A program made the position numbers and the translations under genes. From assembly GCF_020740795.1 (NCBI RefSeq), contig NC_067310.1:429940-493939 (forward strand): 64,000 bases of DNA, read 5' to 3'. How positions within the stretch are numbered: position 1 is the stretch's first letter; every line of letters begins with the position of its first letter. This document shows, one piece after another, positions 1-28,687 of the stretch. Source of the DNA: Apus apus (lineage: Eukaryota). The notes beneath the pieces were generated by a model. That model searched no databases and had not been told where the DNA came from. It saw only the letters and a list, made by a program, of their open reading frames with translations.

Positions 1-404
1 GCTTTTTAGCTGGTTTAATACCACATTGTTCAGCTACATCAGCTTTTAGCGTGGAAATCTGTGCTCCTGTGTCCACCACAAATGTTACAGGATAGCGTCT
101 TGGCCCAACAGCACAAGTAAGCTCCAAGTCCCCATTTTTGTTTTGAACTAATTGTAGTACATTCTGCCAATTTTTTGGAGGATTGGAAGCTGTAGGGCCA
201 GATTGTTTGTCATTTTCCTGTCGATCATTTCCATTTCCTGTATCAAGATTTTGGTTTTTCTTTCCCCCCCCCCGTCTCTTTGTCTTTCTTTTTGATTTCT
301 TTTTCTTGGCAGAAGGAGGGCTATTTAGTTTCCCAACTTCTTGGGTTTTTCCCTGGATTTCTCTCTTGAATTAGACCTTGAGCTGGGCCGTGTAGCCCAA
401 CTTT

Positions 405-980
405 CTACTGGTCTTTCAGAAGCTGGTAAGAAAGATCTCGAGACAAAAGCTTTGATGGGACACCTATACACCTGGCTTCCTCCTTAAGCTTACTGTAGGG
501 CCCTTTGTCATCACCTCGAGATGAAGCACTTTTGTTTTCAGGGTATTGGCTTTTATGGGTGCTGTTTAGCTTTCTGTTGTTTTTAGATCTATCCACGACT
601 GTCCAGTCACCCCGTGATTTCTCCCGCTGCTTAGGAGGATCCTGGGGTGGCCTGACAACCACATCAGCATAGGAGGGTCGAGTGACTTGTCTGACTGCAG
701 GAGGCTTGCAAACATCTTCAGAATCAGATATATCCTCATATTCCTTGCCGTAGTTTACCAATTCTTTGGCCAAATCAGACCATGTAAATCCTTGCAGATC
801 TCCGTTTTCTAGTTTATGTTTGATTTGCATGGCTACCTCTTTAAATGACAGAGGGAGGCCCCTGATTAAAACCTTAATTCTTTCTGGTTTCACTTGAAGA
901 CTCATAGGACTTTCTTGATCTGGTATTAAATCATGGTCATAAATCATTTGAATTACAGCAGCCTTTTGGACATTGCCCAC
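405..980 (-). CDS. Gag-like ORF (191 aa, MGNVQKAAV...) of the ERV-L-like provirus, probably degenerate
   Basis: It lies downstream of the LTR, PBS and leader on the same strand and has an N-terminal MG. No strong motif was recognised. The minus strand beyond 405 is interrupted by stops. Confidence 0.3.
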   Translation of the reverse strand: MGNVQKAAVIQMIYDHDLIPDQESPMSLQVKPERIKVLIRGLPLSFKEVAMQIKHKLENGDLQGFTWSDLAKELVNYGKEYEDISDSEDVCKPPAVRQVTRPSYADVVVRPPQDPPKQREKSRGDWTVVDRSKNNRKLNSTHKSQYPENKSASSRGDDKGPYSKLKEEARCIGVPSKLLSRDLSYQLLKDQ

Positions 981-2310
981 AAGGTTATAATAGCCCCCCC
1001 GCAGGGTCCTTGGCTCTCCTCTGCTAATGGGATCACTTGAGCCAACACAAAAAGCTGCTCACTGGGTTAGGGACCAGTGGTGTCCCCTATCTCCAGTCGT
1101 TAGAATAATTCTGGATCCCCAGAAGCCTCTAGCTTCTTGTTCACTTAACATGATCTTGTCTCCTCCTGTGAGGGACACTCTCATTACATATTCAATTTCC
1201 GTCTCAGATGGGACCCTGCTGTATTGCTTTTAATTTTTGTCAATTCTAGTGGTGTGTGAGATACTTCCTTAACTACCACATCTTTCCTCCCACCAGTATC
1301 TTCATCACGAGAAAAAGAAGTTCTCACAACCAGGCACAGTTGTTTATGCTCTATTCTCTCCTCCTCATCATCCTCAGAACTGGTATTGTGAGAAAATAAA
1401 TTAGTTGGGACTTTGTCCATATTTGTGGAAAGTTGGTGGACATCTATCTCCAATTTGCTAATCCTTTGAGTGTCACGTGTCATAAAGTTACTAACTGCCT
1501 CATGTAATATCCTAATATCTGCCCTTATACCCTCCTCCTGCTCCTTGGAGGAGGCATGGGGGCTTGCTGCTCTTGTGGCTGTGGCTTTGATTCCAAAATT
1601 GGGTGCTGCTTTTCTCTCCCGGAATGAAAACTCACTCATTTTCTATCTGATTGCTCAGAGTTTACGGGCTTGCATTTCTTTAGTATATTAAAGTCATCCG
1701 GGTCCTCAGTATCCTGACTACCAGAACCTGAGGAATCCTCACAATTAGCAAGTTCCCCACATTTATCACCTGACCAAGACAGGGTGGCACTGGTTTTCCT
1801 CTCCTTTCCCTGCTTTCTTAACCCTTCAATCTCTTGCTGTAACCCTTCATTTACTCACTGCAACCCTTCAGTCCTTTGCTGTAACTCTGCAACCTTTTCT
1901 TGTCATCCCTCCTTTGCTTGCCACACAACCATGGCCAGGACAAAGAAATTTCGGACATTGATGAAATCAAGCCCGTGTTTTTTAATCTCCTTTTTAAGCT
2001 CTTTAGACAGAGGAGTACCATCTTCCAAAGTCATGATGTAATTTGCGAGTCTACTGAGGTCTCCCCCCCATGTAGGCATCATGAATAATTTTGTACTGCC
2101 CCCTCCGTATAGTGTACCCACGCCTCTTAAGGTGCTCCCAAAAGGGACACACAAATGCACATTTTTGCAATTCCTCCTCAAAATTATGGGGGAGGTGAAA
2201 ATGGCGCCTCCTGAACTTCAGTGCTTTCCTCACAAATTTCATTTTCTGCATTTTCTGCATCAGCACTTACAGCATCTGCATCACCTATATCCCCCTTGGT
2301 AGCCATTTTC

Positions 2311-2314
2311 TCTA

Positions 2315-2365
<51 letters not shown>

Positions 2366-2366: not shown

Positions 2367-2416
2367 TCACAAATTAAGCAATTTCAGAGCGTGGGGGGCT
2401 TCTAACGACCCCCGTT

Positions 2417-2434
2417 ATCCCACTTCTGACACCA
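2417..2434 (-). promoter_or_regulatory. Primer-binding site complementary to the 3' end of tRNA-Leu (TGGTGTCAGAAGTGGGAT)
   Basis: On the minus strand it lies 2 nt after the LTR terminal CA. It is the reverse complement of ATCCCACTTCTGACACCA, the tRNA-Leu(CAA) acceptor end plus CCA as recalled from memory. A tRNA-Leu PBS is the diagnostic of ERV-L elements. Confidence 0.65.
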
Positions 2435-2436
2435 GA

Positions 2437-2881
2437 TGTTGCAAGCTGGTACCGGGGGCTCCCGGCTGTCAGGTGCTTTTGCGACTCCCCCCTCTCAATG
2501 GGGAGGGGTTTGTGAATGAGCCCGAGGGTCACATGCGGTGCTGCCTCTCACAGAGGAACGGCCACTGTGGGACTGTATTGCAGGGGGTAGTTAGAAAGCC
2601 CCCCCACCCCACTACGCTCAGAAATTGCCTCTAAAGCCAAGGTTTGCTCCACAAACTAATTGGTTTATTAAGGGTTAACACAAACTGAGGGATGATGTGT
2701 AGGGACAATGCAGGTGTGAATGGCTACCAGGGATACCAATATGTGTGTAGTGAGAAAGTGTCTTTTAGGGAGGCAATGCAAAGGTGCTTTTAAGGGAGAG
2801 GATTAAGGACCAAACGGAGAAGGGGAGGAGGGGAGGAGGCTGAAGAGGTTGCGCTGTGTGTGCAAGTATGAGGGGAAAGGA

Positions 2882-2923
<42 letters not shown>

Positions 2924-3525
2924 ATGTTCCCCTCCGGCGGCTTGTCCAGCGTCGGTCGGTGGCCGGAGGGCAGGACGGCAGGTCCGTGGTGTCGGAGGGG
3001 CAGCCTCTCGGCAGCGGGTGCAGCGGCCGCTGGTTTCCCCTCCAGGGCAGCAACACGGGGAGGGGGCTCCGGCCCCGACCCCAGGGCTCGGGACCCCGGC
3101 ACGCTCGGCGCTGAGGCTCAGGCTGGACCCGGGGCAGGCAGGCAGGCAGGGTCCCAGCACCAGTGTCCGCAGCAGGGGGGTGTCCCAGGCAGAAAGCGTC
3201 CGAACGGGCCTCAGGGAGGAGGGAAGGGCCCACCTGCTGCCCTCGCCCCTTTGATACCCCCTGACCCACCTGTCCAGTCAGTGTCACTGCCCAGAGCCAA
3301 CGAGCGTCCATGAGCCCCACGTTAGGGCGGTGACTGCCAGGGGCACAGGATGGCTTGTCGCCCATCCTTTCTGTCCCGGGCCACAGCTGTTGTTTTGGGT
3401 TCAGTTGTCCTTGAAAAGCAAGTCTGTTTTAGTTCGTTAGCTGGGGATAATCAGGAGAGGCCTTCGCTGGCTGAAAAGTCATTTTGTTTAGACTGATGTG
3501 GGGAAGAAAAGAACAGTTTCCCACA
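2437..3525 (-). repeat. 5' LTR (1089 bp) of the ERV-L-like provirus. The transcriptional sense is the minus strand (TGTGGGAAACTG...GCTTGCAACA).
   Basis: About 90% identical over its full length to copies at 41209-42310 (inverted) and 59287-60375. It carries an internal (GT)n microsatellite, AATAAA on the minus strand (near 2663-2668) and terminal TG/CA. Confidence 0.8.
2885..2918. repeat. (GT)n microsatellite inside the LTR; also present at 41812-41842 and 59744-59772 in the other LTR copies
   Basis: Direct reading of the sequence. Confidence 0.95.
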
Positions 3526-5790
3526 GTCAGTAACTAAGTTTAGCCTCCCCATAGTGGATTTGACCCCTTTGTGACAAAATGACTGAAAAAGCAAAAAACC
3601 AAGACTCTTGGTAAAAGGCAGGGACTTGTTTTTTGCATTCTTGGCCAAGTATGGGGCTCAGCCCCCTCCTCTCGGAGAAGAATGGGCTCGAGATAATTTG
3701 ATAAATTTTCAGAATGTAATAGACCAAGTCACCTCTTTACAGAGTGAGGCCAAGATTAGGTTTGTTGTACCAGGTAACAAGAGGGCAATAGGCTGTGCTG
3801 GTTTGGGTGTCAGCTTGGTCGCAGCTATTGAGGATCACCTCAAGCAACGTAGTGACCAGGAAAAAATCATGGAATTCCCTGAAAGCTTGGTACACTCTTA
3901 TCAGACGACAATTTCTAGCTTGAAAGAGGAAAACCACTCATCAGGGGTTGCCCTTGAGGTGGATCATGTAAATACCACTGACTTACTGAATGAGGTCTGG
4001 CCTGAGCGTGAGGAAAAGGGCACCCAACAAACTAACCCTGTATACCCAAAAAATGAGTTGGAAGAGGTGAGGAAACTATAGAGAAAGCCCTCAAATGAGA
4101 CCCTTAATTAAAACAGAATATGCTTAATTAAAACAGAACAGCTCCTGCTGCCAGCTCTGTAAGAGTCAGGCATCACCTGCCCTTGGGGGTTGACACTCAG
4201 CCCCATGTCTCCACCCACCCCAGGTGCCTGCAGACTATTTAGGTCCCTCTGTACAAGCCACGCTGCTGTCCAGACACCGAGGCAAAAGGCCAATGGGATC
4301 ATCATGGGGCTGGCCAGGCTGGTGCCCTGTGTGTCCATCCATCCTTCCTGGAAGAGCCAGTGCTCATCACCTCATTGTGGCCATCAGGCTGGGTGGCCAC
4401 ACCCTGCTGAAGGTCGGGGAAGAGCTGCTTCTCCCAGAGCCCGGGGGTTGAAAGCAGCAGCAGGAAAAAATGGTTTTAAAGGTATTAAGGAATTCCTATA
4501 GCTCCAAGACCATGACATCCAACTGCATCTCTTCTCAATTCCAACATTTCCAATGCCTGTAGACATCACTCAAGCTGGATCATGATCCTGGAGCATGAGG
4601 ACCCCTGGAGCAGTGTGAACCACCCCTGTGAAGGTGACTGTGGACAAGTCCCCACAGGAAATGCCCGTTCCCCTCTAGAAGGAGAGGAACGGTGGGAATC
4701 CAGACTGAGGTGAGACACCTCCTGAGATGTGGCTTACTGGACTCTCCTGAAGTCCTGCTGACCATGCTGCTCTTTCCCAGCATTGTCCTACCCCCTTCCC
4801 AGATCTGCTGATGGGCTGAAGGCTCCAAGTTGATCCTGGTGCAGAGCCCCCCCCTCCAGAAGGCCCCAGGAGCAGCTACGGTGGGTGCAGGTTGCAGGTG
4901 AGGGCAAGGGGGATGTGGAGAGGCTGATGGAGGTCTGCAGCCAGCAGCACTGAACCCAGCACCTCATTGCTGTGTCCCCTGGCCATGCAGAGGACCTAGT
5001 GCCCTTTCTGCTCTTCTTTCCTGCTGCAACCAGTGACTCTGCACACATGGGACCCCCAAGCTAATGCTCCACAACCCTCCAGGCAGGCAAGAACAACAAG
5101 ATGCTTTATGCTTGACACAGGATTGGGTGTCCACTGGGACATTCAGCTGGAAGAGGAGAATACCCCCAAAACGATCTTCACACCAGGTTGTGGCTCACCA
5201 TGCTCATCTTCTGCTGATGGGAAGCAGCTCCACACAGTTGGTCCTCACAGATGTGTTGGAGTAATTCTGTTACCTCCAAAGTCCTGGGAGCAACCTTCAG
5301 AGGGACACCAGGGTTTTGCTAAAGATGACCATGGAGGGGTTTAAAAGATGTATTGACGTGGGGCTGAGGGCCATGGTTTAGTGTTGGATTAATGGTTGGA
5401 CTTGGTGTTCAGAAGGGTCATTTCCAACCTCAATAGTTCTGTGGTTTGGTGACTCTTGGCTGCTCTTGGCTTGGCCATCATGCCTCAGTGTGGACCAGGG
5501 CTGAGTTCAAGGTAAATTAATGACATAACCGAGTTCTTCTCAGCTGTGCCAGGACAGAAACCCTGAAGGTAGCTTAGATATTGCTGGGCAAAGAGAAGGT
5601 TTGGTAGATCTCAGGCGTGCACATCGTTTCCATCTTCTTTCCTGTGGGAGAATGATAGAAAGCAAGACTTTCAGTCTGAAGTAGGTGCTGTTCCCTCTGT
5701 GGTGTTCCGAGCTGCCCATTACATCTTGTGCTCTTCCCCCACAGAGCACAAATGCGATGAGACAACCAGCCCACCCCCAGAGGCTTTGAT

Positions 5791-6999: not shown

Positions 7000-7800
7000 C
7001 TAGATATATAACCTGGTATTCTATGGACATCTGAGAGAAGTCTCTCAATCTCTGGCCCTTGTCCTTGTTGGGGACTTGCCAGATGTCAGTTGGAAGCATC
7101 ACAGAGCAGAGAGGGAACAGGCCTGGAGGTTCCTGGAGTGTATAGAGGATAATTTCCTGACCCAGCTGGTGAGGGACCCTCTAGGGAAGGTGCCCTGCTG
7201 GACCTGCTGTTTGTCAAGAGAGATGGGCTGGTGGAGGGTGTGATGGCTGGAGGCCATCTCGGGCATAGTGGCCATGAAATGAAGTTCTCTGTTCCTGGAG
7301 AAGTAAGGAGGAGGGCCAGCAGCACGGCTGCCTGGGACTTCTGGTGGGCAAACTTGAACCTGTTTTGGAGACTGGTTGACAGGGTCCCTTGGGAGGCCAG
7401 TCCTGAAGGGCAAAGGAGTCCAGGCAGGCTGGACATTCTTCAGGAAGGAAGTCTTAAAGGCACAGGAACGGGCCCCCCCGTGCCGGAAGATGAGCCAGTG
7501 GGGTAGAAGACCAGCCTGGCTGAATAAAGAGACTTGGCTGCTACTCAGGGGAAAAAGGAGAGTGTGTGGCCTTTGGAAAGAGGACAGGCTGGTCAAGATG
7601 ACTACAAGGATGTTGTGAAGCTGTGCAGGGTGAGGATTAGGAGGGACAAAATCCCAACTTGAAATCAAGCTGGCTGCAACTGTCCAAGATGACAAGAAAA
7701 GCTTCTATAAATATATTAACAACAAAAGGAGGACTAAGGAGAACTTCTGTCCCTTACTGGATGCAGCAGGAAACACAGTGATGAGGGGTGATGTCAACGT
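7000..7800 (+). mobile_element. CR1 LINE ORF2 fragment (region N-terminal to the RT)
   Basis: The translation (LLFVKRDGLVEGVMAGGHLGHSGHEM...RPAWLNKETWLLLRGKRRV...KKSFYKYINNKRRTKEN) matches the chicken CR1 ORF2 consensus. Confidence 0.8.
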
Positions 7801-8496: not shown

Positions 8497-9012
8497 AGGT
8501 GAGGAGAAGGCTGAGGTATCAACGGCACCTTTGCCTCAGTCTTTAGCGGTAGGACCAGTTCCTTGCTGGGTGCACAGGCCCCTGAACTGGCAGACAGGGA
8601 CACAGAGCAGTTTGAAAACCTCATCATCCAAGAGGGGACAGGCAGTGACCTGCTGCACCACTTGGATGTCCACAGGTCCGTGGGGCCGGATGGGATCCAG
8701 CCGAGGGGTCTGAGGGAGCTGGCAGAAGTGCTCCCCAAGCTCCTTTCCATCACTTTCCAGCAGTTCTGGCTGACTAGGGAGGTGCCAGTAGACTGGAGAC
8801 TGGTCAATGTGACCCCAGCTACAAGAAGAGCCATAAGGAGGATCCAGGGACTTGCAGGCCTATCGGCCTGACCTCTGTGCTGGGGAAGTTCTGGAGCAGA
8901 TCATGCTGAGGGCCATCACATGGTCCCCTCTCCTTTCAGCCCTCTGCTGACCAAGGTGCGTGTTTATTTCCATAATGCATGGCCACCCCCCCATATCCCC
9001 ATGCTCTCCCAT
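8497..9012 (+). repeat. Left arm of a near-identical inverted repeat pair; the sequence is CR1 RT-derived (MGPDGIQPRGLRELAEVL...VDWRLVNVTP)
   Basis: It is about 99% identical to the reverse complement of 16384-16908. The six-frame ORFs in the two arms are identical apart from single residues. Confidence 0.8.
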
Positions 9013-9663
9013 CAACATGCCCCCGCCCATGGACCTTCAAAGGTCTCCTCCAGCCCACGTAATTCTGTGAGTCCATAACTGGACGTGTTCCAGGTCAGGC
9101 TGCTCCAGCAGCTTGGAGCAACCTCATCTGGTTGAAGCTGTCCTTGCCCCTGGGCAGGAGGGGCTCCATCCCGAGGATGGACGGAGCTGGTGGCAGCTCC
9201 ATCACCCAGGGCAGCAGGTCAGTGGTTGCCATGACACCATAAGCAGCCAATCAGCAGTTTCCATGTCACCATGATGTCACCATGGGCTGCCCAGGGGTAT
9301 CCAAGGGGCCACGGGGTGGTGTGTCCTACACTCTGGAGAAGCGTCCAGAGGATGAACACGAGGATGAGCTCCCCTGTGGCTGTCGCCCCTAAGAAGCAAC
9401 TTGCCAGCATGAGGTGGACTGAGGTGGAGTTCTGGGATGGGATGGAGCCCACTTTCATGATGCCCAGCATCACAGCTGAAGGTACAGCCCTCCAGCCGCT
9501 GCAGGAACGTTGTGGCGAACAAGGGTGGCACTGCAGCCATCTCAGGGGTGTCACTGTCTGGGCATGACACTGGGCATCTGCCACGGCAGCATGGCTCGGG
9601 AGATAGTGGAGGGCTGAGAGCTGGTGGACATGGAGGATGACCTGGTTCTCCTTTGCTTTCCAG

Positions 9664-11699: not shown

Positions 11700-11757
11700 T
11701 GCCCTATTCACAGAAACATTCAAGGTCAGGTTGGACAGGGGGCTCGGAGCAACCTGG
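11700..11757 (+). mobile_element. CR1 3'-end fragment
   Basis: The segment ggtcaggttggacagggggctcggagcaacctggt is characteristic of the CR1 3' terminal region. Confidence 0.6.
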
Positions 11758-11900
11758 TGTCGCGAGCCGGTATCGGGGGCTCCCGGCTGCCCCCCCAATG
11801 TGGAGGGGTTTGTGAATGAGCCCGAGGGTCACACGTGGTGCTGCCTCTCACAGAGGAACAGCCGCTGTGGGACCGTGTTTTAGAGTGGAAGTTAGAAAGC
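11758..11900 (-). repeat. About 140-bp fragment of the ERV-L-like LTR (U5 end)
   Basis: The segment tgtcgcgagccggtatcgggggctcccggctg...gtttgtgaatgagcccgagggtcaca aligns to the first roughly 140 bp of the LTR copies at 2437, 42310(rc) and 59287. Confidence 0.7.
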
Positions 11901-13204
11901 ATTAGGTAATGCAAAAAGTGCTGTGCCCTTAAAGCGTTGTGTCTGTGAGAGGGTTGTGGATCAAAGGAAAGGGAGCGTGACCCCCCTGTCCAGCCAGTGT
12001 CACTGTCCAGAGCCACTTGGCACCATGAGCCCCAAGTTAGGGCGGTAACTAGCAGGGCAATGCAGAACTTGTTGCCCATCCTTCCTGTCTTGTACCACAT
12101 CTGCTGTTTTGGTTTTGTTTGTCCTTGAGCAGCAGGCCTGGTTTTGGTCCATTAGCTGGGTATAATCAGCAGATTTATGAGGGGAAGAAGAAGAACAGTG
12201 TCCCACACCTGGTCTTGTTGACGATGTCCTTGCCCATGGTCTAGCTGGACCTTCACAGTTCCTTCCAACCTGAAACACTCTGCGAGTCCATGATCAGAAG
12301 ACTGCAAAGTCAGGTTGGATGGGGCTTGAAGTTACCTGGTGTGGTTGAAGATGTTTCTGCTCATTGCGGGGGCTTGGACCAGATGGACCTGCAAAGATCC
12401 TCTCAACCCCCATGTGGCTCTCAGGGCAGGCTGGATGCAGCCTCAAGCCATCATGTCCTCAGGCAGATCTCTCCCATTGTGTCTTTGCAGGAAGCAACTG
12501 GTGATATCGCGGGATTCCTCTGCCAAAAAGCAGCTGGTGACCACCCAAGCCAAGGGCAAGCCTGCTTCCAAAGGCCGAGCATCGAAGCAGGTGGTGAAAT
12601 CTGAGAGCTACAGAGGAGGAGGAGGACGAGGAGAAGGAGGAAGAAAAGGAGGTGGAGGAGAAGGAGGACCAGAAGGACCAGGATCAGGAGGGCAAGGAGG
12701 AGGGGAAGGATGGGTGGAGAAAATCCTTGCTGAAATGGCAGTGCCGAAGACAACGAAGGCCCTGCCCAGCCATTCCCAGCCAGCCTTGACTTTCCAAACA
12801 CCGCTGATCGCTGTGTTTTCGGCTGAGAGCTCTGACATCTGGAGCCCACTGCAGTAGGCAACTCACCAGGTTCTCCCAGGCACTCCCAGGGCCACCAGTG
12901 AGATCAAGATGGCCAAAATAGTAACATTGAGGCCTGAAGAATTCTGGTCAGTGGTGGAATAACCTCATGTTGTGGTTTAAGTGGCCCCTGTAGGTTGTTG
13001 ACACCTATCTGAGGAACTAGAGAGAGGGTCTTTAGGCCTCCGAAGGAGCTGAGAGGGGTCAGGATTCCCTCTGGCTTGCTGCTGTCCTCTATACAAGCCA
13101 AGAGAACTGGGAGCTCAGCCCCTTTTTCTTCCTGCACCTTCTTCCTTGCAGCTGCTGCTGCTCAGAGGTTCTTCAACTCACCAGGTGCTCTCCAGAATCC
13201 AACT

Positions 13205-13505
13205 CCATCAGGTGCATTGAGGAGCTGTGGACCCCTCTCCTGAGGCAGCCTTGCTCCAAGGGTCCCTCACCCACCTACTCCTGCCATCCTTGAGATGGGT
13301 TTTTTATCTGTCTGTGTGTCAGTTTATAGAACTGTTCTCCCCGACACCTGTTACTCCCTTTTCCGTGTTAGAGTAAATTTGTTCCAGATCCCATCTCCAG
13401 CCCTTCAGTCTCTCTTCCTTGTTCCCCTTCTGTCTTCCCTTGGGAGGGTGGAGGGGGGTAATAAGGAGCAATTCTGCCTTCTGGTTTGTACTTTGCCCTG
13501 ACCAC
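13205..13505 (+). repeat. Unclassified interspersed repeat (LTR-like); the second copy is at 55492-55765
   Basis: The two segments are about 80% identical (ggacccctctcctgaggcagccttgc...cagtctctcttcctt...ccctgaccac). Confidence 0.6.
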
Positions 13506-13539
13506 GAAACCAGGACACCTCAGAAGATGACAGACATGG

Positions 13540-14350
13540 GGGTCTGGGACAATTCATAGAATGCCAGGTTGGAAGAGACCTCAAGGATCATCTGGTCCAG
13601 CCTTTCTAGGTACTACTCTAGATTCTATCAGATGGCTCAGCACCTGGTCAAGCTTAGACTTAGAACTATCCAATGTGGGGGAATCCACCACTTCCCCTGG
13701 GAGACTATTCTAATGTCTGACCGTCCTCATGGTGAAAAATTTACCTCTTGTGTCCAGTCAGAATCTCCCCAGGAGCAACTTGTGCCCATCACCCCTTAAC
13801 TTTTCCATGTGACTCCTCCTTGTAAACAGGGACTCTCCAACTTCTTGGGAGTCACCCTTGAAACACTGGAACATGGTGAAAAGGTCTCTCCTGAGCCTTC
13901 TTTTCTCCAGGCTGAACAAACCCAGTCTGCTCAGCCTCCCCTCATATGGCAGGTCCTCCAGTCCTCTGATCATCCTTGAGGTTTTTGTAGAGCAGGGCCC
14001 AAAGCTGAATACAGTACTGCAGGTGTGGTCTGACAAGCGCCGAATAGAACGGGATGATGACTTCTTGATCTCTGCTGGTGATGCCCTTGCTGTTGCAGGC
14101 CAACATCCTCTTGGTTTCTTTGCCCTTCAGTGCACTGTGCACTCATGTTGAGCCTGTTGTCCACCAAGACCCCCAGGTCCCTTTCCACAGGGCTGCTCTC
14201 CAGCCAGCTGGGTCCCAGTCTGAACTGTGCTCCTGAGTGATGTGCTCCCAGACCTTACACTTCTCCCCATTGAACTTCATAAGGTTCCTGCTAGCCCACT
14301 CCTCCAACCTCTCTAGGTCATCCTGAAGGGTGGCTCTCCCTTCTGGGCCA
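13540..14350 (-). mobile_element. CR1 LINE fragment (ORF2 C-terminal region, antisense to the plus strand)
   Basis: The minus-strand translation FSLEKRRLRRDLFTMFQCFKGD... is typical of the CR1 ORF2 C-terminus. Confidence 0.75.
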
Positions 14351-14439
14351 CCACCATCTGGCAGCCACCATCTGAGAGCTGCCACCAGATGCCACCACCA
14401 TCTGGCTGCCACCAATTGGGTGCCGGACACATCAACACC

Positions 14440-14650
14440 ACCGAGCCTCTCAGCACAAGGGAAAACGTCTGGATTGTGAGGGTGACAGAGCACTGGGACA
14501 GGCTGTCCAGAGAGGCTGTGGAGTCTCCTTCTCTGAAGACATTCCAAATCCCCCTGGATGCCGTCCTGTGTGACGTGCTCCAGGCAGTCCTGCTTTAGCA
14601 GGGGGTGAACTAGCTGATCTCTAGAGGTCCCTGCCAACCCAACGATGCTG
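14440..14650 (+). mobile_element. CR1 3' end
   Basis: The peptide RVTEHWDRLSREAVESPSLKTFQ..LD matches the CR1 ORF2 C-terminal consensus. Confidence 0.8.
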
Positions 14651-15384
14651 TGATTCCATGACTCCCTGAGGGGACACCTGGCTGCTGGTGGGGACACAGC
14701 ACTGGTCCAGCCCCCCTTGCACCCTGAGTTCCCCAAGGCCCTTGGCCGTGGTTGGGCACCTGAGCCTTGCTGCTGGTTTCCCAGCCCAGCCCTGCTTTTT
14801 TGTTCCCTGCCCCCCACCCTCTCAAAGATGCTTCTAACTCCTGTGATACTGAATTTGTCCACACAGGTGTCACGTGTTTAGCCAATTTACTCACATTCCC
14901 ATGAAATGGCTCTGATTTTCTTGTTTGTTTTCTGTTCAAATTACATGAAGTGTGAATCCTTCAGTTTTGCTGCCAAGCCCTGTGACACCCCAGAGCTTTC
15001 CAAAATCTGAAATAGTGAGAGACAGATTCAGCCATCGTCCTGCCACCAGTGCACTCGCCACAGGCCACCACCAGTGCTGCTGGTCAAAGGAGGTGGCCAA
15101 CCACACCTGCAGCAGGACCACGCAGAGAGGAGGTGGAAAGGGCCGCTTGGTAGAGGGCATGGAGAGCGCATGTCCTAACCCATCCCACCAGGAGCAGAGG
15201 GAGAGTCCTGCCACAAGCCCTGCAGCCAGACGCCAGCCTTGACAATGCCATCCTGTTGATGTGGCACCTGAAAACAGGGATCTGTGACCCCTCAGGGACT
15301 GATGGCAGTGTGCTCTGTTCCTCTGCCATCTGGCTTTCCCCAGACACTGTTTCCTGGGCAGATTGGGCATCGGCTCAGCTTCCC

Positions 15385-16000
15385 TGGGTCGGGATCATAG
15401 AATCATAGAATCTCAGAAAGGTTAGGGTAGGAAGGGACATTAAAGATCATCTAGATACAACCCCCTTTGTGGGCAGCGACACCTCCCACTAGATCATGTT
15501 GCTTAGAGCCCCATCCAACCTGGCCTTGAACACTGCCAGGGGCGGAGCTTCCACAGCCTCCCTGGGCAACCTGTTCCAGTGCCTCACCACTCTAACAGTA
15601 AAGAATTTACCACTAATATCCAATAAATCTCCCCTCGTCAAGTTTTTAACCATTGTCCCTTGTCCTCTCACTACATGCCAGTGCAAAGGGTCCTGCCCCA
15701 GCTTTCTTGTAGGCCCCTTCAGGTATTGGAAAGCCGCTGTAAGGTCACCTCAGAGCCTCTTCTTCTCCAGGCTGAACAACCCCACCTTCCTCAGCCTGTC
15801 TTTATAGGGCAGGTGCTCCAGTCCTCTGATCATTTTTGTCACCTTCCTCTGGACTCACTCAAGGCACTCTATGTCCTTCTTACATTGAGGGCTCCAGAAC
15901 TGGACATAGTATTCCAGGTGGGATCTCACAAGAGCAGAGTAGAGGGGGAGAATCGCCTCCCTCAACCAGCTGGCCAAACTTCTATTTGCTCTTTTCACTG
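15385..16000 (-). mobile_element. CR1 fragment
   Basis: It begins with catagaatcatagaatc, the reverse complement of the CR1 3' terminal octamer repeats. The minus-strand [31 protein letters not shown] is CR1-like. Confidence 0.8.
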
Positions 16001-16383
16001 ATGGCTCCTGTCATCTTGTAGGGAACCACCAAAAGTGGAAAGCTGCTGTGTTGGGTCCTACACAACTGGTTGCAGAGGCAGCTGAAGGAAAAGGTGAATT
16101 GAGTCAGTTTGCAGAGGTCAAAGCCATCCAGCTGGCTTTGGACACTGCTGAGTGAGAGGGGTGGCAAAGACTATTTCCAGCTGGACCAGCTTATGAGGAG
16201 GGCTCCTTGGATTTGGGCTGGGGTCTGAGACATGATAGGGGTTACAGGCACCCCATACTCACCCCTTGGGTGCCAGGAGTTGGCAGCAGGGATGGAGATT
16301 GAGCAGGGGACCCATGGGGTGGGTCCAAGGGCTGGGATCTGGACAGGGGGGGCACACTTGGGTGGAGGGGGGAGGAGGAGAGT

Positions 16384-17075
16384 GGGCATGTTGATGGGAG
16401 AGCATGGGGATATGGGGGGGTGCCCATGCATTATGGAAATAAACACGCACCTTGGTCAGCAGAGGGCTGAAAGGAGAGGGGACCATGTGATGGCCCTCAG
16501 CATGATCTGCTCCAGAACTTCCCCAGCACAGAGGTCAGGCCGATAGGCCTGCAAGTCCCTGGATCCTCCTTATGGCTCTTCTTGTAGCTGGGGTCACATT
16601 GACCAGTCTCCAGTCTACTGGCACCTCCCTAGTCAGCCAGAACTGCTGGAAAGTGATGGAAAGGAGCTTGGGGAGCACTTCTGCCAGCTCCCTCAGACCC
16701 CTCGGCTGGATCCCATCCGGCCCCATGGACCTGTGGACATCCAAGTGGTGCAGCAGGTCACTGCCTGTCCCCTCTTGGATGATGAGGTTTCAAACTGCTC
16801 TGTGTCCCTGTCTGCCAGTTCAGGGGCCTGTGCACCCAGCAAGGAACTGGTCCTACCGCTAAAGACTGAGGCAAAGGTGCTGTTGATACCTCAGCCTTCT
16901 CCTCACCCCTCATCACTGTGTTTCCTGCTGCATCTGAAAAAGGGTGGACATTCTTCCTAGTCCTCTTTTTGCTGCTCATGTATCTGTAGAAGCATTTCTT
17001 GTGATCGTGGACAGCTGCATGAAACAGAGCATTACCCAAACTCTGACTTCAAACAGTTCACTGCTTGTAGGGTGT
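16384..17075 (-). mobile_element. CR1 ORF2 fragment; 16384-16908 is the right arm of the inverted repeat pair
   Basis: The translation is the same as at 8497-9012. Towards the 5' end it continues as CR1 (KKCFYRYMSSKKRTRKN...), where it is more diverged from the 7000-7800 copy. Confidence 0.8.
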
Positions 17076-17899
17076 AAATCTCTCATCTGGGCCTACTGCT
17101 AGTGAGTGTGAAAGCCTTTTGTGTGAGCTGGTCTGGAGTTTTAGGGAAGAAATACAAGGGTCCTTGAAGAAGAAAGAAGCCGTTCAGCTGAGACTAGGGA
17201 TGCCTCCTGTAACCAGTTCTGCTGCAGAGTCAGCCGAGAGAAATGGGAGAAGAGACAGAACTCGGCCAAAGGTTCCTGTGAGGAAGACTCAAGGATGAAG
17301 TAAACAACCCCCTGGTCAGAGGGGTGTGCCCACACAATATGGAAAGAAACAGGCAAGGGAAAATGGGGAGGATGGGGACAGGAGGGGAACGGGGAGCTGG
17401 TATTTCTGCAAGGGGATACTGGGATGTCCAGGGGGAAGGATGGATCTCCAAGGGCTCCAGGACATGAGGGGAAGAGGGCCGGGGCCATGTCCAGGAGGGG
17501 ATGATGGGCAAACGAGCTGCTCATGGGAGATGGGGGTGAGGCTGGTTCAGCGGGGGGGGCAGAGGAGCAGGTCTGTGTGCCAGGGCAGTGCAAGGGACAT
17601 GGGTGCAACAAGAGCTGAACAGTGTCTGCAAGAGGGGACTGTGGATCCAGGACCTTCAGAAATCATACAGGGCCATCTCCAACTTCTCGGGGCCATCCAC
17701 AGCCTCTCTGGGCCATCCTCAGCCTCTCTGCACAAGCTGCTCCAGTATCTCACTATCCTTCCACACGAGCTGATGTCATGCTGGGCAATAATAAAGTGGG
17801 ATCAAAGAAGGGGTTGGGGAATGTGTCCCAAGGCAGGTGTCACTCTCCAACTGGCTGGGCAGCTGGGTGGGAGCTGTGATTCTCCCTCTGTGCTCAGCA

Positions 17900-18240
17900 C
17901 TGGTGAGCTTGCCTTGAGTCCTGGGTGCAATTCTGCACCCCTCACTTCAAGGAAGATCCTGAGGTGCTGGAGCAGGTCCAGAGGAGAGCAACAGGGCTGG
18001 TGAAGGGACAGGAAGGAAAGTCTTACAGACAGAGGCTGAGGGAGCTGGGCTTGTTTAGCCTGGAGGAGACTCAGGGGGGACCTTCTTACTCTACTACCTG
18101 AAGGGAGGTTGTGGTCAGGTGGGGTCTGGGCTCTTCTCCCAGGAAACCAGTGACAGGACTAGAGGGCCTGGCCTGAAGCTGCTCCAGGGGAGGTTTAGGT
18201 TGGACATTAGGAAGCACAGCCACTCAGACTCATTCATCTC
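17900..18240 (+). mobile_element. CR1 3' fragment
   Basis: The translation contains LEHCVQFW..VQRRATGLVKG...LFSLEETQ...[15 protein letters not shown]. Confidence 0.75.
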
Positions 18241-18399
18241 CCAGTGGCTCCCAATATCCCCCCAGTGCCCCTCAGTCATTCCAGTGCCTCCAGTTCCCTT
18301 GTACCCACCGCCCCAGCCCCTTCCAGTGCCTCCCAGAACTCTCCCAGTTTCTCCCCAGTGTTCCCAGTACCCCTCTGTGGAGCCCCTCGACCTGACAAA

Positions 18400-19010
18400 C
18401 CCCCAATTTGGGGAGGGGGGTGGGGCCTGGGGGGGGGCACCGCCCCTCCCCCATCACACCTTATGGGGCTTCCCCCAGATCCGCTCCCCTGGGGCCCAGA
18501 GGTGCAACACACAAACCCTCCCCCCCACCCCAACAGCCACTCATTTTTGGTTCCCCCAACTTTGCGCCACAATTTCAGTCCCCCCCTTTCAGTTCCTCCC
18601 TAATTAAGTTCCTCTCCATTAAGTGCCCCAACTTCGTCCCCTTCCCCCATTTGGTTCCCCCCGACTTGTGTCCCCCTCCTCCTTCAGTTCTTCCTCAATT
18701 CAGTTCCCCCCTCTTTCATTCTCCCCCTAATTTAATTCCCCAACATAGTTCTCCCCCTAATTTTGGTTCCTCCCCAATTTAATTCTCTGTAACTTTGGTT
18801 CCCTTCCCCTATAGTCCCTCCCATCCTTTGTTTCCCCCCTCCATTTAATTCCTCCCCCATTAGTTCCCTCCTCCACTTTGGTTTCCCCCTTCAGTTGCCC
18901 CCCCCCAACTTTGTTCCCTCCTCCTTTAATTCCCTCCCCAATTCAGCCCCCCCCACTTTGCTCCCCTCCCCTATCAGTCGTGTCCCCCCCCAGATTTCAC
19001 TCCCCGCCTC
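18400..19010. repeat. Degenerate pyrimidine-rich tandem array of roughly 20-bp units (...ttggttcccccc / ttcagttcc...)
   Basis: Reiterated related motifs are visible over about 600 bp, on the C/T-rich strand. Confidence 0.6.
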
Positions 19011-19019
19011 ACTTCCCCC

Positions 19020-19540
19020 ACAGAATCACAGAATGATGGAAGGGACCTCTAGAGATCGAGTCCAGCCCCACCGCCAGAGCAGGACCACCACAGAATCTAG
19101 GGCAGATCACACAGAAATGCATCCAGATGGGTCTTGAAAGTCTCCATAGAAGAAGACTCCACAACCTCTCTGGGCAGCTTGTCCCAGGGCTCCCTCACCC
19201 TAACAGGAAAGATATGTTTCCTCATGTCATCCAGAGGGACCTGGAGAGGCTGAAGAGGTGGGCCAGGGTTATAGACAAGGAAAAGAGAGACAATCATAAG
19301 ATCAGAGATGGATAAATGGGGCAGAGTAGAACATCTACATATGCAAGCAGCAAGAGTTGTACAGCACAACACTAGAAGTAACACACACGAAAACTGAAAT
19401 AGCCAGAAAAAAAGAAGATGCAGTGGAAGAAGCCACAGGCTGAGACTTGAGCTTTCCAAGTACCAAAGGGAAAGGATCTTGTACAGCTTTTGAGCACAGC
19501 TTTTTGCACCCTGGGGCAAGAACAGAAGCACCACAGCACT
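19020..19540 (-). mobile_element. CR1 fragment
   Basis: The minus-strand ORF IFPVRVREPWDKLPREVVESSSMETFKTHLD is CR1-like. The plus strand begins with cacagaatcacagaatgatgg. Confidence 0.75.
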
Positions 19541-20639
19541 TGAGACATGAGACCTGGCAGCTCCCTAACGGCCAAGGTAGGAAATTGGCAGGTTTAACCA
19601 TCCTAAAGCCAGAGGAGGTCTCTTGAAGAACACAAGAGTAACAAATATTAGAAAACATGCCAGAAAATCCTTAGCAAGTTCACAGAAATGGTGCTGATAC
19701 AAAACCAACCATCACTTCCTTCAATAATTCCCAAGAACAGCAGCAACAGAGCTGTCTGACCAACCCCAGGAAGGCAGCAATGAGGCTCAAGAGACACGAG
19801 CGTTACCAGAGATGAACATTCATCATGCACTCTGCCCTTACATGGAAGTTGGCAGTAGAATGCCCAGGTGTTTAAAGTGTGGAGATGACAATGTGGGGGC
19901 AGCAGCCTGTGGAGAGAAGCAAATGCACCTCAGAGGCACAGGGCAGAGCTGGGCTCTTCAATACCGAAGAAGATGCAGCAGCACAAAGCTGATCAATCAG
20001 CTCATCTCAAAGGCAGGTGAAACACAGATGGGCTCCTTGCATCTTTCAACACGGAGCAAGAAAGAACACCACAGCTCAGTAACACCACAGAGCAGAACTC
20101 ACTCATGGACAAGGCAGCCAGGAACTGAACAGGCTGTGGAGAATTAACACCTTCATCAGCACCAAACCCAGCCTTTTTTCCACTGGTCACCATCAGCCCA
20201 AGTGGGTGACTGTGGCAGCTGTGACAGCTGCTGCAGCACAGGAAACAGAATCTGAGTGTGTTCACCTGCCAGTCTGGCCACTTCTTTCAGGTCACACCCA
20301 AGGACTTAAAATTACAGCATCACAGGATCACAGAATGGTGGGGGTTGGAAGGGCCCTCTGGAGATAGAGTCCAAGCACCTGCTAGAGCAGGACCACCTAA
20401 AGAAGTCACACAGGAACATATCCAGAAGGGTCTTGGAAGTCTCCAGAGAAGGAGACTCTACAACCTCTCTGGGCAGCCTGTTCCAGGGCTCAGTCACCCT
20501 CACAATGCAGAAGTTCTTCCTCATGTTGAGGTGGAACTTCTGTGCTCCAGTTTTAATCCATTGTCCTTCATCCTATCACACAGCACGACTGAAAAAAGAC
20601 TGGCCCCTTCTTCTTGACACCCACCCTGCAGATACTTAG

Positions 20640-20930
20640 AGCTATTAAAAAGATCCCTTGTCAGTCTTGAGATGGGGACACAGGGACATGGGGGGGACAT
20701 GGGGACAATATGGGGGTGACATGGGGACAGAGGGGTGTGTGGGGGGGTCAGGGAGGCAAGGGATGGGGGGGGACGGGGGTGACATGGGGACAGGGGTGCT
20801 GTGTTGCATGTGTCCCCTTGTTTGTGGGAAGAGACACAGGGGACCCCCCATGACCCCATGTGTTTTAGGGGGGGACATGGGAGGACATGATGGGACATGG
20901 GGACAACATGGAGGGACATGAGGGGTAAGC
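20640..20930. repeat. GGGGACATGG-type tandem repeat
   Basis: Repeated ggggacatgg/gggggtgacatgggg units. Related arrays occur at 22650-22700 and 29050-29290. Confidence 0.7.
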
Positions 20931-21059
20931 CCCCTACTCGTGGAGCTGCAACTGGGGCCAAAGCTGCCCCAAACTGCCCAGAACTGCCCCAAACCGCCCT
21001 CCCCCCCCCCCATCCCTTCTGCAGCTCCCTCCAGAAGGGGACCCCTGTCCCCCCCCCAG

Positions 21060-21700
21060 CTCCCCCTGTCATAGAATCATAGAATCATTTAAGGTTGGAG
21101 GGGACCTCAGAGATCATCAAGTTCCAACCCCCCTGCCATGAGCAGGGAACCCTCCCACCAGACCAGGTTGCACAAAACCTTGTCCAATCTGGTCTTAAAA
21201 AAACCTCCAGGGATGGGGCATCAACAACCTCCCTGGGCAACCCATCCCAGTTCCTCACCACCCTTAAAGTGAAGAATTTCTTCCTAATATCTAATCTAAA
21301 TCTCCCCTCTCTCAGTTTAAAACCATCACCCCTTGTCCTGTCACTATCTTCTCTGATGAAAAGCCCCTCCCCAGCTTTCCTGGAGCGCCTTCAGGCACTG
21401 GAAGGTGCTTTAAGGTCTCCCTGGAGCCTTCTCTTCTCTAGGCTGAACAGCCCCAATTCTCTCAGCCTGTCTTCACATCAGAGCTGCTCCAGGCCTTTGA
21501 TCATCTTGGTGGCCCTTCTCTGGACCCTCTCCAACAGGTCTATATCTTTCTTGCGCTGAGGGCACCACAACTGTACACAGTGTTCCAGGTGGGGTCTCAC
21601 TAGAGCAGAGTTGAGGGGCAGAATCACCTCCCTGGCCCTGCTGGCCACACTTCTTTGGATGCAGCCCAGGTTGCAGTTTGCTCTCTTGGCTCCAGGACAC
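21060..21700 (-). mobile_element. CR1 fragment
   Basis: It starts with catagaatcatagaatc. The plus-frame translation is the typical CR1 antisense peptide ([26 protein letters not shown]...). Confidence 0.75.
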
Positions 21701-21749
21701 ACTGGGGGCTCATGTCCAGCTTCTCATCTCCTCCCACTCCCAAGTCCTT

Positions 21750-22450
21750 CTCCTCAGGGCTGCTCTCCAGCCATTCTCTTCCCAGCCTGTATTTGTGCCT
21801 GGGGTTGTGCCGACCCAGGGTTGTGCTGTCCTTGTCCTCCCCCGTCCCCCCCACTTTCCCCCCGTCCATGTCCCCCATCCCCCCTCTCCCCTCCTGCAGG
21901 TCGCTCCAGAAGGGGTCCCCGCGTTCCCCCTCTCCCCTCCCGCAGCCCCCCCGGTCGGCACCCGCGGCGCTCTCTGCGCCGCCTCCAGTAGCTCATCCAG
22001 CAGCTCGTGGCCGATGAGGTCAAGTCGCGAGAATCGGTCGCAGGGGCAGAGGCTGAGCTGGGGACAGGTGTCGGCCTGGGGGTCCCCGCAGTCGGGGAGC
22101 CGAGGTGGGGGGTCGCACCTTGGTCTGCACTTCCCGCTTGCGGGCAGGGAGGAGGAAGATCTTGACAGAAGGGGCCGGGGGGGCCCGTGTCCGGCCGGGG
22201 GGGGGGCAAGTCACGACCCCCAGAACTGGTCGCTGTTGGGGACCGTGGGCGCAGCGCAGGGACAGCGACAGGGACCGCAGGGGGAAGGAGGCGGGTGGTC
22301 CCGGCACCCCCCCGGTGCTGGCCCCCCCCCCCCCCCCCGCTGCCTGTACCCCCCCGTACAGCTCGGGCTGCAGTTGGCTCACGTTGGGGGGGCTCAGCTG
22401 CTCCACGCGATCCTCGGAGGGGCGAGGAGGTGCTGGGGGAAGAAATATAG
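21750..22450. promoter_or_regulatory. CpG island / GC-rich block with no assigned gene
   Basis: Very high G+C and CpG content, poly-C tract at 22326-22345. Overlapping 300-aa ORFs lie on both strands, which is typical of compositional artefacts. Confidence 0.4.
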
Positions 22451-23469
22451 GGAGGTTGAGGGGGGCCGTGGGAATAGCCCTCCTGGGTGGGATGAGGCAC
22501 TTCTGCACCAACCCCCCATGCGCAAGGAGGTGTGTGCGTGTGCCCAACGCACAAGAGGACGTGGGGGTGGGGCTGGAGGGGACACAGGGTGTGTGTGGGG
22601 GGCACTTTTACACCAACCGCCCCTCCCATGCACAAGTGTTTGGTGTCCCCTGTGTTCCCCCCTAAAAGACATGGGGACATGGGGGTGACGTGGGGAATAA
22701 CGACCTTAAAACCAGTAAGGTTATAAAGAAGGTATGTTTATTCAGCGCCGGGTGCACGGGGGATCGCTCTCCACAAACGTGCACACCCTGGAGCTGTTGG
22801 CAAGCTCATTATATACCACAAAGTAATACATATTCATCCCTGCTGTTGCATATACATTCGGTGTCCGAGGATAGGGAGGGGTTATTACAATTAGTTCCGG
22901 GAAATTATTATCACAGTTGCCACCCCGGACTCCTCCTTGCTGCATCTGCGCAGTGTCTCCTGGGGGTCGCGGGCGGGGGTCTTTGGGATGAAGGCCGTAT
23001 GTCTTCATCGCTGTGCACTTTTCACCTCTGGCATTCCTTTTTTTCCAATCTGGTTGATCTGCCGAGGTCTGCACGACCTTTCTGCTTTCGCAGCAAGCTC
23101 CTGTTCAAACATCCCCTCACACAATGCCCTCATTTACATTCCAAGCCTTATCTAAGCTAAACAATGCCATCTTGTTTACTCCTTATGTGCTAGTCCCTTT
23201 TATCAGGGGGCCCCCTGTGCCCCCTCCCACACACAAGGGGACATGTGCGAAACAGCACCCCTGTCCCCCCGTCACCCCCATACTGCGTCACTCCAGTCGG
23301 TCTCGTAGTGGGGGGCCCAGGAGGTGTCCGGAGTCTGGCGCCCTTCTTTTGTACAGTTAATTCCTGGGACACACCAGGTGGCCACCCAGTCACTGTCCCA
23401 CCTGTGCAGAGCGGTCGGGATCTCTCCTGCCCCCCCTTGGTCCAGTTATCCCTACAGACCTCCAGTCTG

Positions 23470-23700
23470 TTCTGCCAAGCTGTGTTTGACATGGAGCACT
23501 GTGCTGGAGAGCAGAGCTGGAGAGGTGAGAGGCAGAGCTGGGGTGAAATCCTGGTGATTGGTGAGGAAGAAGGGGAAGAAGGTGCCCAAACATAAGTTTC
23601 CTTGCAACCCGTGGCGAGATGGCAGCTGTGCCCCTTCACTCATGGAGGAACGTGGTGGGACATTCCCTGGGGACACCAGGAGGGGTGAACTTGGCCGGTG
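23470..23700 (+). repeat. Unclassified interspersed repeat; the second copy is at 46830-47040
   Basis: The shared core is gagctggagaggtgagaggcagagctg...gaagaaggggaag..gtgcccaa.c..aagtttccttgcaaccc.tggcgagatggcagctgtgcccct.cactcatggaggaacgtggtgggacattccctggggg...gtgaacttgg. Confidence 0.65.
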
Positions 23701-24012
23701 GCCTCGGATGATGCAGCTGCGGGAGCCCCCGGGCCAGGGGAGGTGCCTGTTCCCGAAGCCCCCGTGACTCTGGGCAGCGCTGGAGCAGCTCGCCACGATC
23801 CCGGCAGAGCCCATTATTCGGACTGTGCTGTGGTGGAGCTAAAATGGACTGTCGTAAGATAACTGAGACACTCCCCTTTAATCAGGTTTTCTGACACCAG
23901 CCCAATCACAACCATGGGATTCCTGCCCTTCCAGCGACACAAACAGAGCAATGACGACCGGAGCGATCACGTGGGCTCGCTCCAAACCGGAGCGGACGCG
24001 GACGTGCCGGGC

Positions 24013-24096
24013 GGTGCGGGCGGAGCCCCTCGCGGTGCGGGCGGAGCCCCTCGCGGTGCGGGCGGAGCCCCTCGCGGTGCGGGCGGAGCCGCTGAC
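24013..24096. repeat. 21-bp minisatellite (ggtgcgggcggagcccctcgc), four copies
   Basis: Direct reading. It is translated as (SARTARG)n in minus-strand ORF 23878-24114. Confidence 0.9.
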
Positions 24097-24199
24097 GCCG
24101 CGCGCCGAAACCAAAGCCTGGGTACCGTGATATATTTAAATAGTTGACACGGTTTATTTTAAATAAAATACACGAGAAAATATGCTCAGAATAGAGGGT

Positions 24200-24620
24200 T
24201 TAAAACGAGAGAGGAATTGAGAACGCAACTGTGGGAACGCGTGGGTTGTCCTGGCACGGTCCCGGCGGAGCTGGTACCCGAGCAGGAGAAGCGAAGGAGC
24301 TGAGGAGTCAGTGTCCGACGCACCCTCAGTGAGGCCTGACGCTGTGCGCGCTTGGAAGAGCCCCGCGTTTCTTCCCCCGGGGACAGAATCCCACAGAAAG
24401 CAAGTGTGAGACCGGAAAGGAGCCGCCGCCCGAGGCCCGGCGACCGAGGAGATCCCCGGGCGGCGGCGGCGGGTGGTGACGCGCGTCAGACGGGCAGGCG
24501 GCAGCGGCGGGTGCGGGAGGTGCGGGGAAGCGGGCGGGAGGTGCGGGGAAGTGGGTGGGAGGTGCGGGGAGGTGCGGGAGGTGTGGGGAAGCAGGCAGGC
24601 AAGCAGCAACTTGTGATGGT
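24200..24620. promoter_or_regulatory. CpG island containing a G-rich imperfect tandem repeat (gggaggtgcggggaag) at 24514-24600
   Basis: High CpG density. AATAAA-type signals on both strands at 24150-24170 suggest adjacent transcript ends. No gene could be assigned. Confidence 0.35.
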
Positions 24621-24999
24621 AGATGCTTGTAGGGGATGTTCCTGCAGTGAACAGGAGGACGTGAACACCAGAGAACTGCTGCTGTCTCTGCTGGGTTTAT
24701 GGCACAGAAGGTTCCTGGTCCCCTCGTAAGATTTTACAGCAAAGCTCTTTATTCAGAGATCATCAAAGAGCATCGTCTTGTGGGGAAGGCAGGAGAGAGG
24801 CACTTCTAGGGGATCAAATTGACCTTCTGCTGGCCGGTGCCATTACGTTTTCTTGGGGACAGGAGCACTTCCTGCTGAAGGCAGAGCTGAAAACTGTTTT
24901 ATCAGCAAACGGGATCCCAGCGTGGCAGGGGCTGGAGATCATCTAGTCCAACAGCTCTGACAGAGTAGGTTCTCCCAGAGAAACAGGAGGGTCCCAGGT

Positions 25000-26420: not shown

Positions 26421-26559
26421 TTCACCATCCTGCGATTTTCTGACTCTGAGTCCTTTATGCAAATGTGTTTTGATGGTAGGTCATGGGGTGTGCTTCAAAA
26501 GAGAATGGAAGAAGTCCTGCATGAGCCCTGGATGCACATCATGCCACACACTTGGGTAC

Positions 26560-27000
26560 TTAATTCTTCCACTTCACGTTTGATGTCACTTTTCATGGAA
26601 TCAGACTGGTTTGGGTGGGAAGGAACCTTAAAACTCATTCAGTCCCAACCCCCCTCCATGAGGGGCTCCCACCAGCCCAGGTTGCTCCAAGCCCCATCCA
26701 ACCTGCCCTTCAACACTTCCAGGGATGGGGCAGCCACAGCTTCCCTGGGCAACCTGGGCCAGGGTCTCACCACCCTCACAGTGAGGAATTTCCTTCTAAT
26801 GTCCAACCTCAATCTCTTCTCTTCCAGTTTTCATCCATTCCCCCTTGTCCTATCACTGCCCTCTCTGGTGAAAAGTCCCTCCCCAGCTTTCCTGGGCTGG
26901 GGAAGGTGCTCTAAGGTTTCCCCAGACCCTTCTCCAGGCTGAACACCCTCAACTTTCTCATCTCAGCCTATCTCCAGAGCAGAGCTGCTCCATCTCCGTG
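26560..27000 (-). mobile_element. CR1 3' fragment
   Basis: The CR1 antisense-frame peptide is visible on the plus strand (..PPSMRGSHQPRLLQAPSNLPFNTSRDGAATASLGN..). Confidence 0.6.
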
Positions 27001-28583: not shown

Positions 28584-28687
28584 TCCTGGGGGCGGGGGCA
28601 GCCTTAGGACACGCCCCCGCCCATAGCTCCGCCCCCTGAGGGCGGGGACAGCCCTCGGGCACGCCCCCAAGCCCCGCCCCGCACCGT

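Follow-up and report, generated by a model that had tools for sequence, protein, structure and literature searches.

Copies of a probable env-less, ERV-L-related LTR retroelement in a 64-kb stretch of the Apus apus genome

The DNA analysed here is a stretch of 64,000 nucleotides from Apus apus (RefSeq assembly GCF_020740795.1, contig NC_067310.1, positions 429,940 to 493,939 of the forward strand), called the window in what follows. It contains four long terminal repeats (LTRs), named A to D, the remains of two proviruses that resemble the ERV-L group of endogenous retroviruses (ERVs), and a fragment, E, of another element of this kind. The host gene MVP and a degraded ERV of a different class are found in the same window, to which all positions below refer.

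The LTR copies were located by blastn with LTR A as the query against the window. LTR A (2437-3525, minus strand, 1089 bp, ends TGTGG...AACA) is followed by a primer-binding site and LTR C (59287-60375, minus strand, 1089 bp) is preceded by a polypurine tract, which identifies A as a 5' LTR and C as a 3' LTR. These are parts of two separate proviruses, named A and C after their LTRs, of which the first leaves the window at the left edge and the second at the right edge. LTR B (41209-42310, plus strand, 1102 bp) is a solo LTR in the opposite orientation to A and C, with the 5-bp target-site duplication (TSD) CTCGG at 41204-41208 and 42311-42315. LTR D (11758-12207, minus strand, 450 bp) is a solo LTR as well, with the ends TGTGGG...CGACA and the TSD CCAGG at 11753-11757 and 12208-12212. 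All four LTRs have TG...CA termini, starting with TGTGGG and finishing with ACA. The blastn identity to LTR A is 93.1% for B and 92.8% for C; for D it is 77-79% in two blocks, and D lacks the central ~640 bp of the long LTRs including their GC-rich core. D is a complete copy from an older, related subfamily with short LTRs and not a fragment. Within LTR A there is a candidate TATA-like signal (TTAAAAG at 2793), a (CA)17 tract at 2885-2918 and an AATAAA at 2664-2669, and the limits of U3, R and U5 were placed solely by these signals.

A TSD of 5 bp was found at every insertion checked, namely B and D in the window, where proviruses A and C are cut by the edges, and a provirus of the wood stork Mycteria americana (CCCTT) that is described below. 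The TSDs of B and D differ, and these are therefore independent insertions. An initial annotation of the window had described LTR A with an 18-mer two nucleotides beyond it, a second LTR of 1089 bp in the same orientation beside a pol region without env, and copies from distinct integrations. These descriptions stand: LTR A has the length and ends given above, there is no Pfam or tblastn match to env beside LTR C, and flanks, orientations and TSDs differ between the copies. It had also placed a solo LTR and a 140-bp fragment between the proviruses; the solo LTR is B, whereas the supposed fragment is the complete 450-bp solo LTR D with its CCAGG duplication. The count of four insertions of one family has to be revised, as the pieces are three copies (A, B and C) of one LTR subfamily, one copy (D) of the older short-LTR subfamily and one fragment (E) of a different ERV-L-like lineage.

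The primer-binding site occupies positions 2417-2434 on the minus strand, separated from the end of LTR A by a spacer of two nucleotides (TC), and reads TGGTGTCAGAAGTGGGAT, which is TGTGTCAGAAGTGGGAT with a TG before it. It is complementary at 18/18 positions to the 3' end of tRNA-Leu(CAA). The sequence TGGTGTCAGAAGTGGGAT occurs once in the window, where about 0.11 chance sites are expected even with three mismatches allowed. The 3' end of human tRNA-Leu-CAA-2-1 is ATCCCACTTCTGACACCA, complementary to the site at 18 of 18 positions, and that of tRNA-Leu-CAG-1-1 is ATCCCACTCCTGACACCA, complementary at 17 of 18 (PMC10359600). A probe for mouse tRNA-Leu(CAA) starts with the identical 18-mer (PMC7997516), so that published tRNA sequences bear out the match counts of the initial annotation. 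The complementarity ends at 18 nucleotides, as is usual for such sites. Scans for tRNA genes in the window and in six loci found none, and no family was matched when the window was scanned against Rfam at gathering thresholds.

An inverted repeat encloses the primer-binding site. Its leader arm (2378-2413, minus strand) pairs over a long range with an arm in U5 (2583-2628, minus strand), and the RNA fold has a z-score of -4.15, with none of 200 shuffled sequences folding as well. The Mycteria provirus has an analogous stem between U5 and leader around its primer-binding site, different in sequence and with a z-score of -3.05. Any function of this U5-leader stem is putative. The leader, ~110 nucleotides in length, also carries an (AAT)16 microsatellite (2317-2364, minus strand) between the primer-binding site and the ATG of gag at 2306.

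Provirus A continues with a degenerate gag (170-2306, minus strand) that starts at this ATG, has a coiled-coil-like N-terminal part and is interrupted by several frameshifts and stops. Its region 1253-744 is 42% identical to residues 175-367 of the Mycteria gag and 50% identical to a Hirundo gag. The gag gave no match to any Pfam family, to Gag_p30 or to a solved structure. A Cys-His box (CX2CX4HX4C) was found neither in any frame of the gag region of provirus A nor in the intact Mycteria gag, and a strict regular expression for the major homology region had no match in gag. The Cys-His box is likewise missing from gag of HERV-L, MuERV-L and foamy viruses (PMC2717909). The start of the protease follows at 1-169 on the minus strand, cut by the window edge, with the motif VDTGAQ, a Pfam aspartyl protease match (E = 1e-6) and 56% identity to the Mycteria protease.

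Provirus C supplies a defective pol (61326-64000, minus strand) with reverse transcriptase (RT; motifs YIDD and DYRKLN), tether, RNase H and integrase (HX4HX28CX2C). The Pfam matches are RVT_1 (3e-26), RNase H (3e-13) and rve (4e-11), with the RNase-H-like tether between RT and RNase H. The damage consists of one frameshift, three in-frame stops and, in the integrase, the replacement of the first catalytic D by E. Between integrase and LTR C lies an AT-rich non-coding stretch (60394-61325, minus strand), ~950 bases without an open reading frame (ORF). Searched for env and dUTPase in three frames, this stretch gave no relevant Pfam match at E <= 1, and there was no tblastn match to the env of a Grus element. 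Directly upstream of LTR C is the polypurine-tract region (60376-60393, minus strand), AAAAGCCACGGGGTGAGA, of which GGGGTGAGA adjoins the LTR; the motif CACGGGGTG is common to the tracts of the window, Mycteria and Grus. Proviruses A and C are both dead copies. The gene order gag-protease-RT-RNase H-integrase is split over the two and is complete in the Mycteria relative, and they are assigned to the same family because their LTRs match and because they share this relative.

Fragment E (3526-4130, plus strand) abuts the outer edge of LTR A and consists of the leader and the N-terminal part of gag from another, different ERV-L-like element. Its positions 3530-3589 are 80% identical at the nucleotide level to the leader of the Hirundo element, and 3605-4072 encode a protein segment with 36% identity to residues 5-156 of the Hirundo gag; an RPLIKTEY motif is found near 4100. 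The location of fragment E directly outside LTR A implies that provirus A lies within or against a relative that is older.

A complete relative is the Mycteria americana provirus L001 (JAUNZN010000033.1, 7526-15045), which is apparently intact and very young. Its LTRs of 769 bp are 99.87% identical (1 of 769 positions differs), and six nucleotides past the LTR it has the identical 18-mer primer-binding site. The gag ORF encodes 481 amino acids and is followed in the -1 frame by an ORF of 1057 amino acids for protease, RT, RNase H and integrase, which ends right after the integrase without a dUTPase and has the motifs DYRRLN, YIDD, HX4HX28CX2C and DX57DX35E. No env ORF was found in the 1.3 kb after pol; a weak env-like remnant is seen at 13597-13782 (E = 0.005). 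Protein identity between the window and L001 is 42% in gag, 56% in protease and 54-56% in pol, and the similarity to gag and protease of provirus A and to pol of provirus C ties both to one lineage. The open reading frames and near-identical LTRs of L001 suggest that in the wood stork the element has retrotransposed recently or still does so. A second Mycteria copy (L006) matches the primer-binding site at 17 of 18 positions.

Other close relatives carry a different primer-binding site, TGG[C/T]GTCACG[G/A]ACAGGAT, found in the barn swallow Hirundo rustica (L002, 7678-7695), the crane Grus japonensis (L004, 8255-8272) and the flatback turtle Natator depressus (L003, 9954-9971). At most the first eight nucleotides are like those of the Leu(CAA) site (TGGTGTCA in the Grus form). 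It is probably of a tRNA-Ser(CGA) isodecoder type, an assignment that draws on a known tRNA 5' fragment, GTCACGGTGGCCGAGTGG. A literature search on the sequence of this site returned unrelated primers only. Primer usage has thus switched within the pol clade, with tRNA-Leu(CAA) in the stork and the window and another tRNA in crane, swallow and turtle. The clade is consequently not defined by the primer-binding site, and the statement in the initial annotation that a tRNA-Leu site defines class III ERV-L elements does not hold.

The ERV-L-like identity proposed there is nevertheless borne out by characters that are independent of the primer-binding site: the pol motifs, foamy-like scores, a gag without Cys-His box, the missing env and TSDs of 5 bp, the length of duplication that ERV-L elements make. 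We consider it probable, at roughly 0.88, that the window elements represent copies of a bird-genome LTR retroelement that lacks env and is related to ERV-L, which places it in class III if this is understood broadly. The pol motifs DYRKLN, YIDD and HX4HX28CX2C follow the pattern of MuERV-L (Y12713), unlike the corresponding DYREVN, YVDD and HX3HX29CX2C of foamy virus and DLREVN, YVDD and HX3HX32CX2C of murine leukaemia virus (MLV) (PMC8278194). Among solved structures the window RT scores highest with the foamy protease-RT (152 bits), followed by MLV (137), Ty3 (99) and human immunodeficiency virus (75), and the top match of the integrase is that of prototype foamy virus. Features of Spumaretrovirinae are missing in that the window has YIDD and not YVDD, DTG and not DSG, and no env, and features of class I are missing in that there is no Gag_p30 and no Cys-His box and the RT and integrase motifs differ. 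The database proteins most similar to the window RT are bird proteins with 55-59% identity.

Several points weigh against this classification, which was made from motifs and sequence scores. The lead of foamy virus over MLV is modest, both for the window RT and for the Mycteria Pol (166 against 154). The dUTPase that follows the integrase in MuERV-L and HERV-L is missing in the window as well as in the intact Mycteria relative. Within the window, A and C overlap in their LTRs alone and not in their coding parts, and the tRNA identity of the primer-binding site was judged against human and mouse tRNAs.

The missing dUTPase leads to a variant reading in which the elements belong to a separate deep ERV-L-related or snakehead retrovirus-like (SnRV-like) lineage that originally had an env and lost it in this branch. 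The Grus japonensis relative, whose pol is 51% identical to that of Mycteria, has a gamma-type env and the different primer-binding site, the Mycteria post-pol region contains the env-like remnant mentioned above, and finch ERVs once called SnRV-like fall in group L1 of a bird survey (PMC12287698). The motif pattern, on the other hand, is exactly that of MuERV-L at the places which set it apart from foamy virus and MLV. We give this variant a little less than even odds; it mostly refines the favoured ERV-L reading, leaving the mechanism the same and changing the label alone. The env-less state of the window lineage is probably derived.

That a class I ERV of gamma- or epsilon-like type uses a tRNA-Leu primer by chance is very unlikely. 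Although the MLV RT scores just ~10% under the foamy RT, the RT and integrase motifs depart from those of MLV at all three places compared above and the TSDs are 5 bp. The window moreover has a true class I ERV for comparison, which matches Gag_p30 whereas the gag of provirus A has neither Gag_p30 nor a Cys-His box, and the two RTs are ~30% identical. Still less credible is an origin of the LTR copies by segmental duplication of one insertion, which the near identity of a 400-bp core in A, B and C might suggest. The flanks are unlike at every copy, B runs in the opposite direction to A and C, B and D each have their own 5-bp TSD, and A is a 5' LTR with a primer-binding site after it while C is a 3' LTR with a polypurine tract before it. 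Segmental duplication as the source of the copies is excluded by these differing flanks, orientations and TSDs.

As ERV-L-related elements, the copies in the window are of a known, ordinary kind of genomic repeat. A survey of 758 bird genomes recognised three ERV-L-related major groups, L1-L3 (PMC12287698), and among the LTR families of chicken ERVL is the most abundant, where Birddawg, GGERV22 and GGLTR4A are examples of ERVL-class elements (PMC11602149). These avian groups are abundant, multi-copy, often present as solo LTRs and placed with ERV-L by RT phylogeny, and the window element most probably belongs among them or in the ERVL of RepeatMasker, although the best annotated protein is just 56-59% identical to the window RT.

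The mammalian MuERV-L and HERV-L share with the window element the tRNA-Leu site, the lack of env, a gag without Cys-His box, DYRKLN together with YIDD, and HX4HX28CX2C (PMC8278194), but have a dUTPase after the integrase, whereas the element described here has a bird host and no dUTPase. Mycteria L001 is alike in the primer 18-mer, the 5-bp TSD, the gag-pro-pol order, the lack of an env ORF and of dUTPase, the U5-leader stem and CACGGGGTG. It differs in that its 769-bp LTRs have no sequence relationship to the 1089-bp LTRs of the window, in its spacer of six nucleotides instead of two, and in its condition, young and intact as against the defective copies of the window. Both the Xenopus class III element XtERV-S and Grus L004 have an ERV-L-type gag-pol and belong to the same broad clade. 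XtERV-S is unlike the window element in its class I env, Ser primer and dUTPase-like segment (PMC8278194), and Grus L004 in its env and its primer-binding site TGGTGTCACGGACAGGAT. In Grus L004, with LTRs that are 98.96% identical, a nearly open gamma-type env (~13500-15280; TLV_coat, E = 2.9e-8) follows the ERV-L-type pol, a bird parallel to the combination of class III gag-pol and class I env in XtERV-S. Judged by the sequence scores of RT and integrase, foamy viruses are the closest exogenous genus, and they also have a gag without Cys-His box, but their YVDD, DSG protease, HX3HX29CX2C, env and accessory genes are all missing in the window element.

The LTRs of A, B and C differ by 4.1-6.3% substitutions per pair, or ~7% when indels are included, and the divergence is not evenly spread at the 7-10% given in the initial annotation. 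A GC-rich core in U3 of ~400 bp (72% GC, ~30 CpG), located at 2940-3330 in A, 41400-41800 in B and 59790-60180 in C, differs by 0.5-1.0% between pairs, compared with 2.5-5% in the 5' 200 bp and 6.6-11.9% in the 3' 500 bp. The contrast between core and flanks persists with non-CpG changes alone (Fisher p 1e-5 to 5e-10). The 3' part of LTR A, with 9 CpG against 23 in C, has lost most of these sites, and its core keeps all 30. Tentatively, the core, which resembles a CpG island, might be a recombination hotspot that is being homogenised by gene conversion (ectopic and GC-biased, between copies within 57 kb) or a recently acquired promoter module that recombination in the course of reverse transcription has carried into diverged sublineages, although we find this doubtful. 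A mundane alternative is possible, in which consensus polishing of a GC-rich stretch that is hard to sequence made the cores alike in the assembly. An ORF of 171-198 amino acids across the core was discarded as a gene and taken for a by-product of the GC richness, as the frame is not kept between copies; it had no homologues among 5.8 billion proteins.

The life cycle that we propose for the element is taken from established retroviral biology, apart from the 5-bp TSD, which is seen at the insertions. Transcription would begin in the 5' LTR, and the 3' 18 nucleotides of tRNA-Leu(CAA) would pair with the primer-binding site just past U5, held within the U5-leader stem, and prime minus-strand DNA synthesis. 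The plus strand would be primed by the polypurine tract adjoining the 3' LTR, and integrase would then insert the copy, generating the duplication. With no env, the element would spread through retrotransposition within germ-line cells, and B and D are solo LTRs left after recombination between LTRs.

The host MVP (major vault protein) gene lies on the minus strand, its exons running from 39032 to 28049, where ~17 exon matches in order cover residues 4 to 853 of an MVP query sequence, and the exon at 36.8 kb is matched by Pfam Vault. Solo LTR B is located ~2.2 kb upstream of MVP in the opposite orientation, and this proximity may offer the only conceivable regulatory angle of the locus. Minisatellites with a period of ~20-22 bp are found in this GC-rich region, just upstream of MVP (39378-39777) and inside it (33252-33652). 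The degraded class I (gamma-like) ERV lies at ~49700-54500 on the plus strand, with Gag_p30 (3e-7), RT, RNase H and the integrase zinc domain, and is unrelated to the ERV-L-like elements. An inverted repeat of 525 bp (8498-9022 and 16384-16907) has arms that are 99.2% identical and 7.4 kb apart, with an 80%-identical extension (7675-7791 and 16903-17019) and a 77% match at 56222-56354; it may belong to a further repeat family or have arisen by inverted duplication. Diverged fragments of CR1-like long interspersed elements, which bird and reptile genomes typically contain, occur at several sites (13881-31157 and 26218-47556; direct-repeat families D3-D5, D8-D10, D14 and D18-D20).

Apart from annotation, the locus is of little importance. 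Among the LTR repeats of bird genomes the ERV-L-related elements are the commonest, and surveys of them cover hundreds of species. What the locus adds is a set of copies with correct limits, a tRNA-Leu(CAA) site that has been verified, 5-bp TSDs and evidence for an avian branch without the dUTPase of mammalian ERV-L. Of possible interest to repeat specialists are the switching of primers between sister lineages and the mosaic LTRs with their almost invariant GC-rich core.

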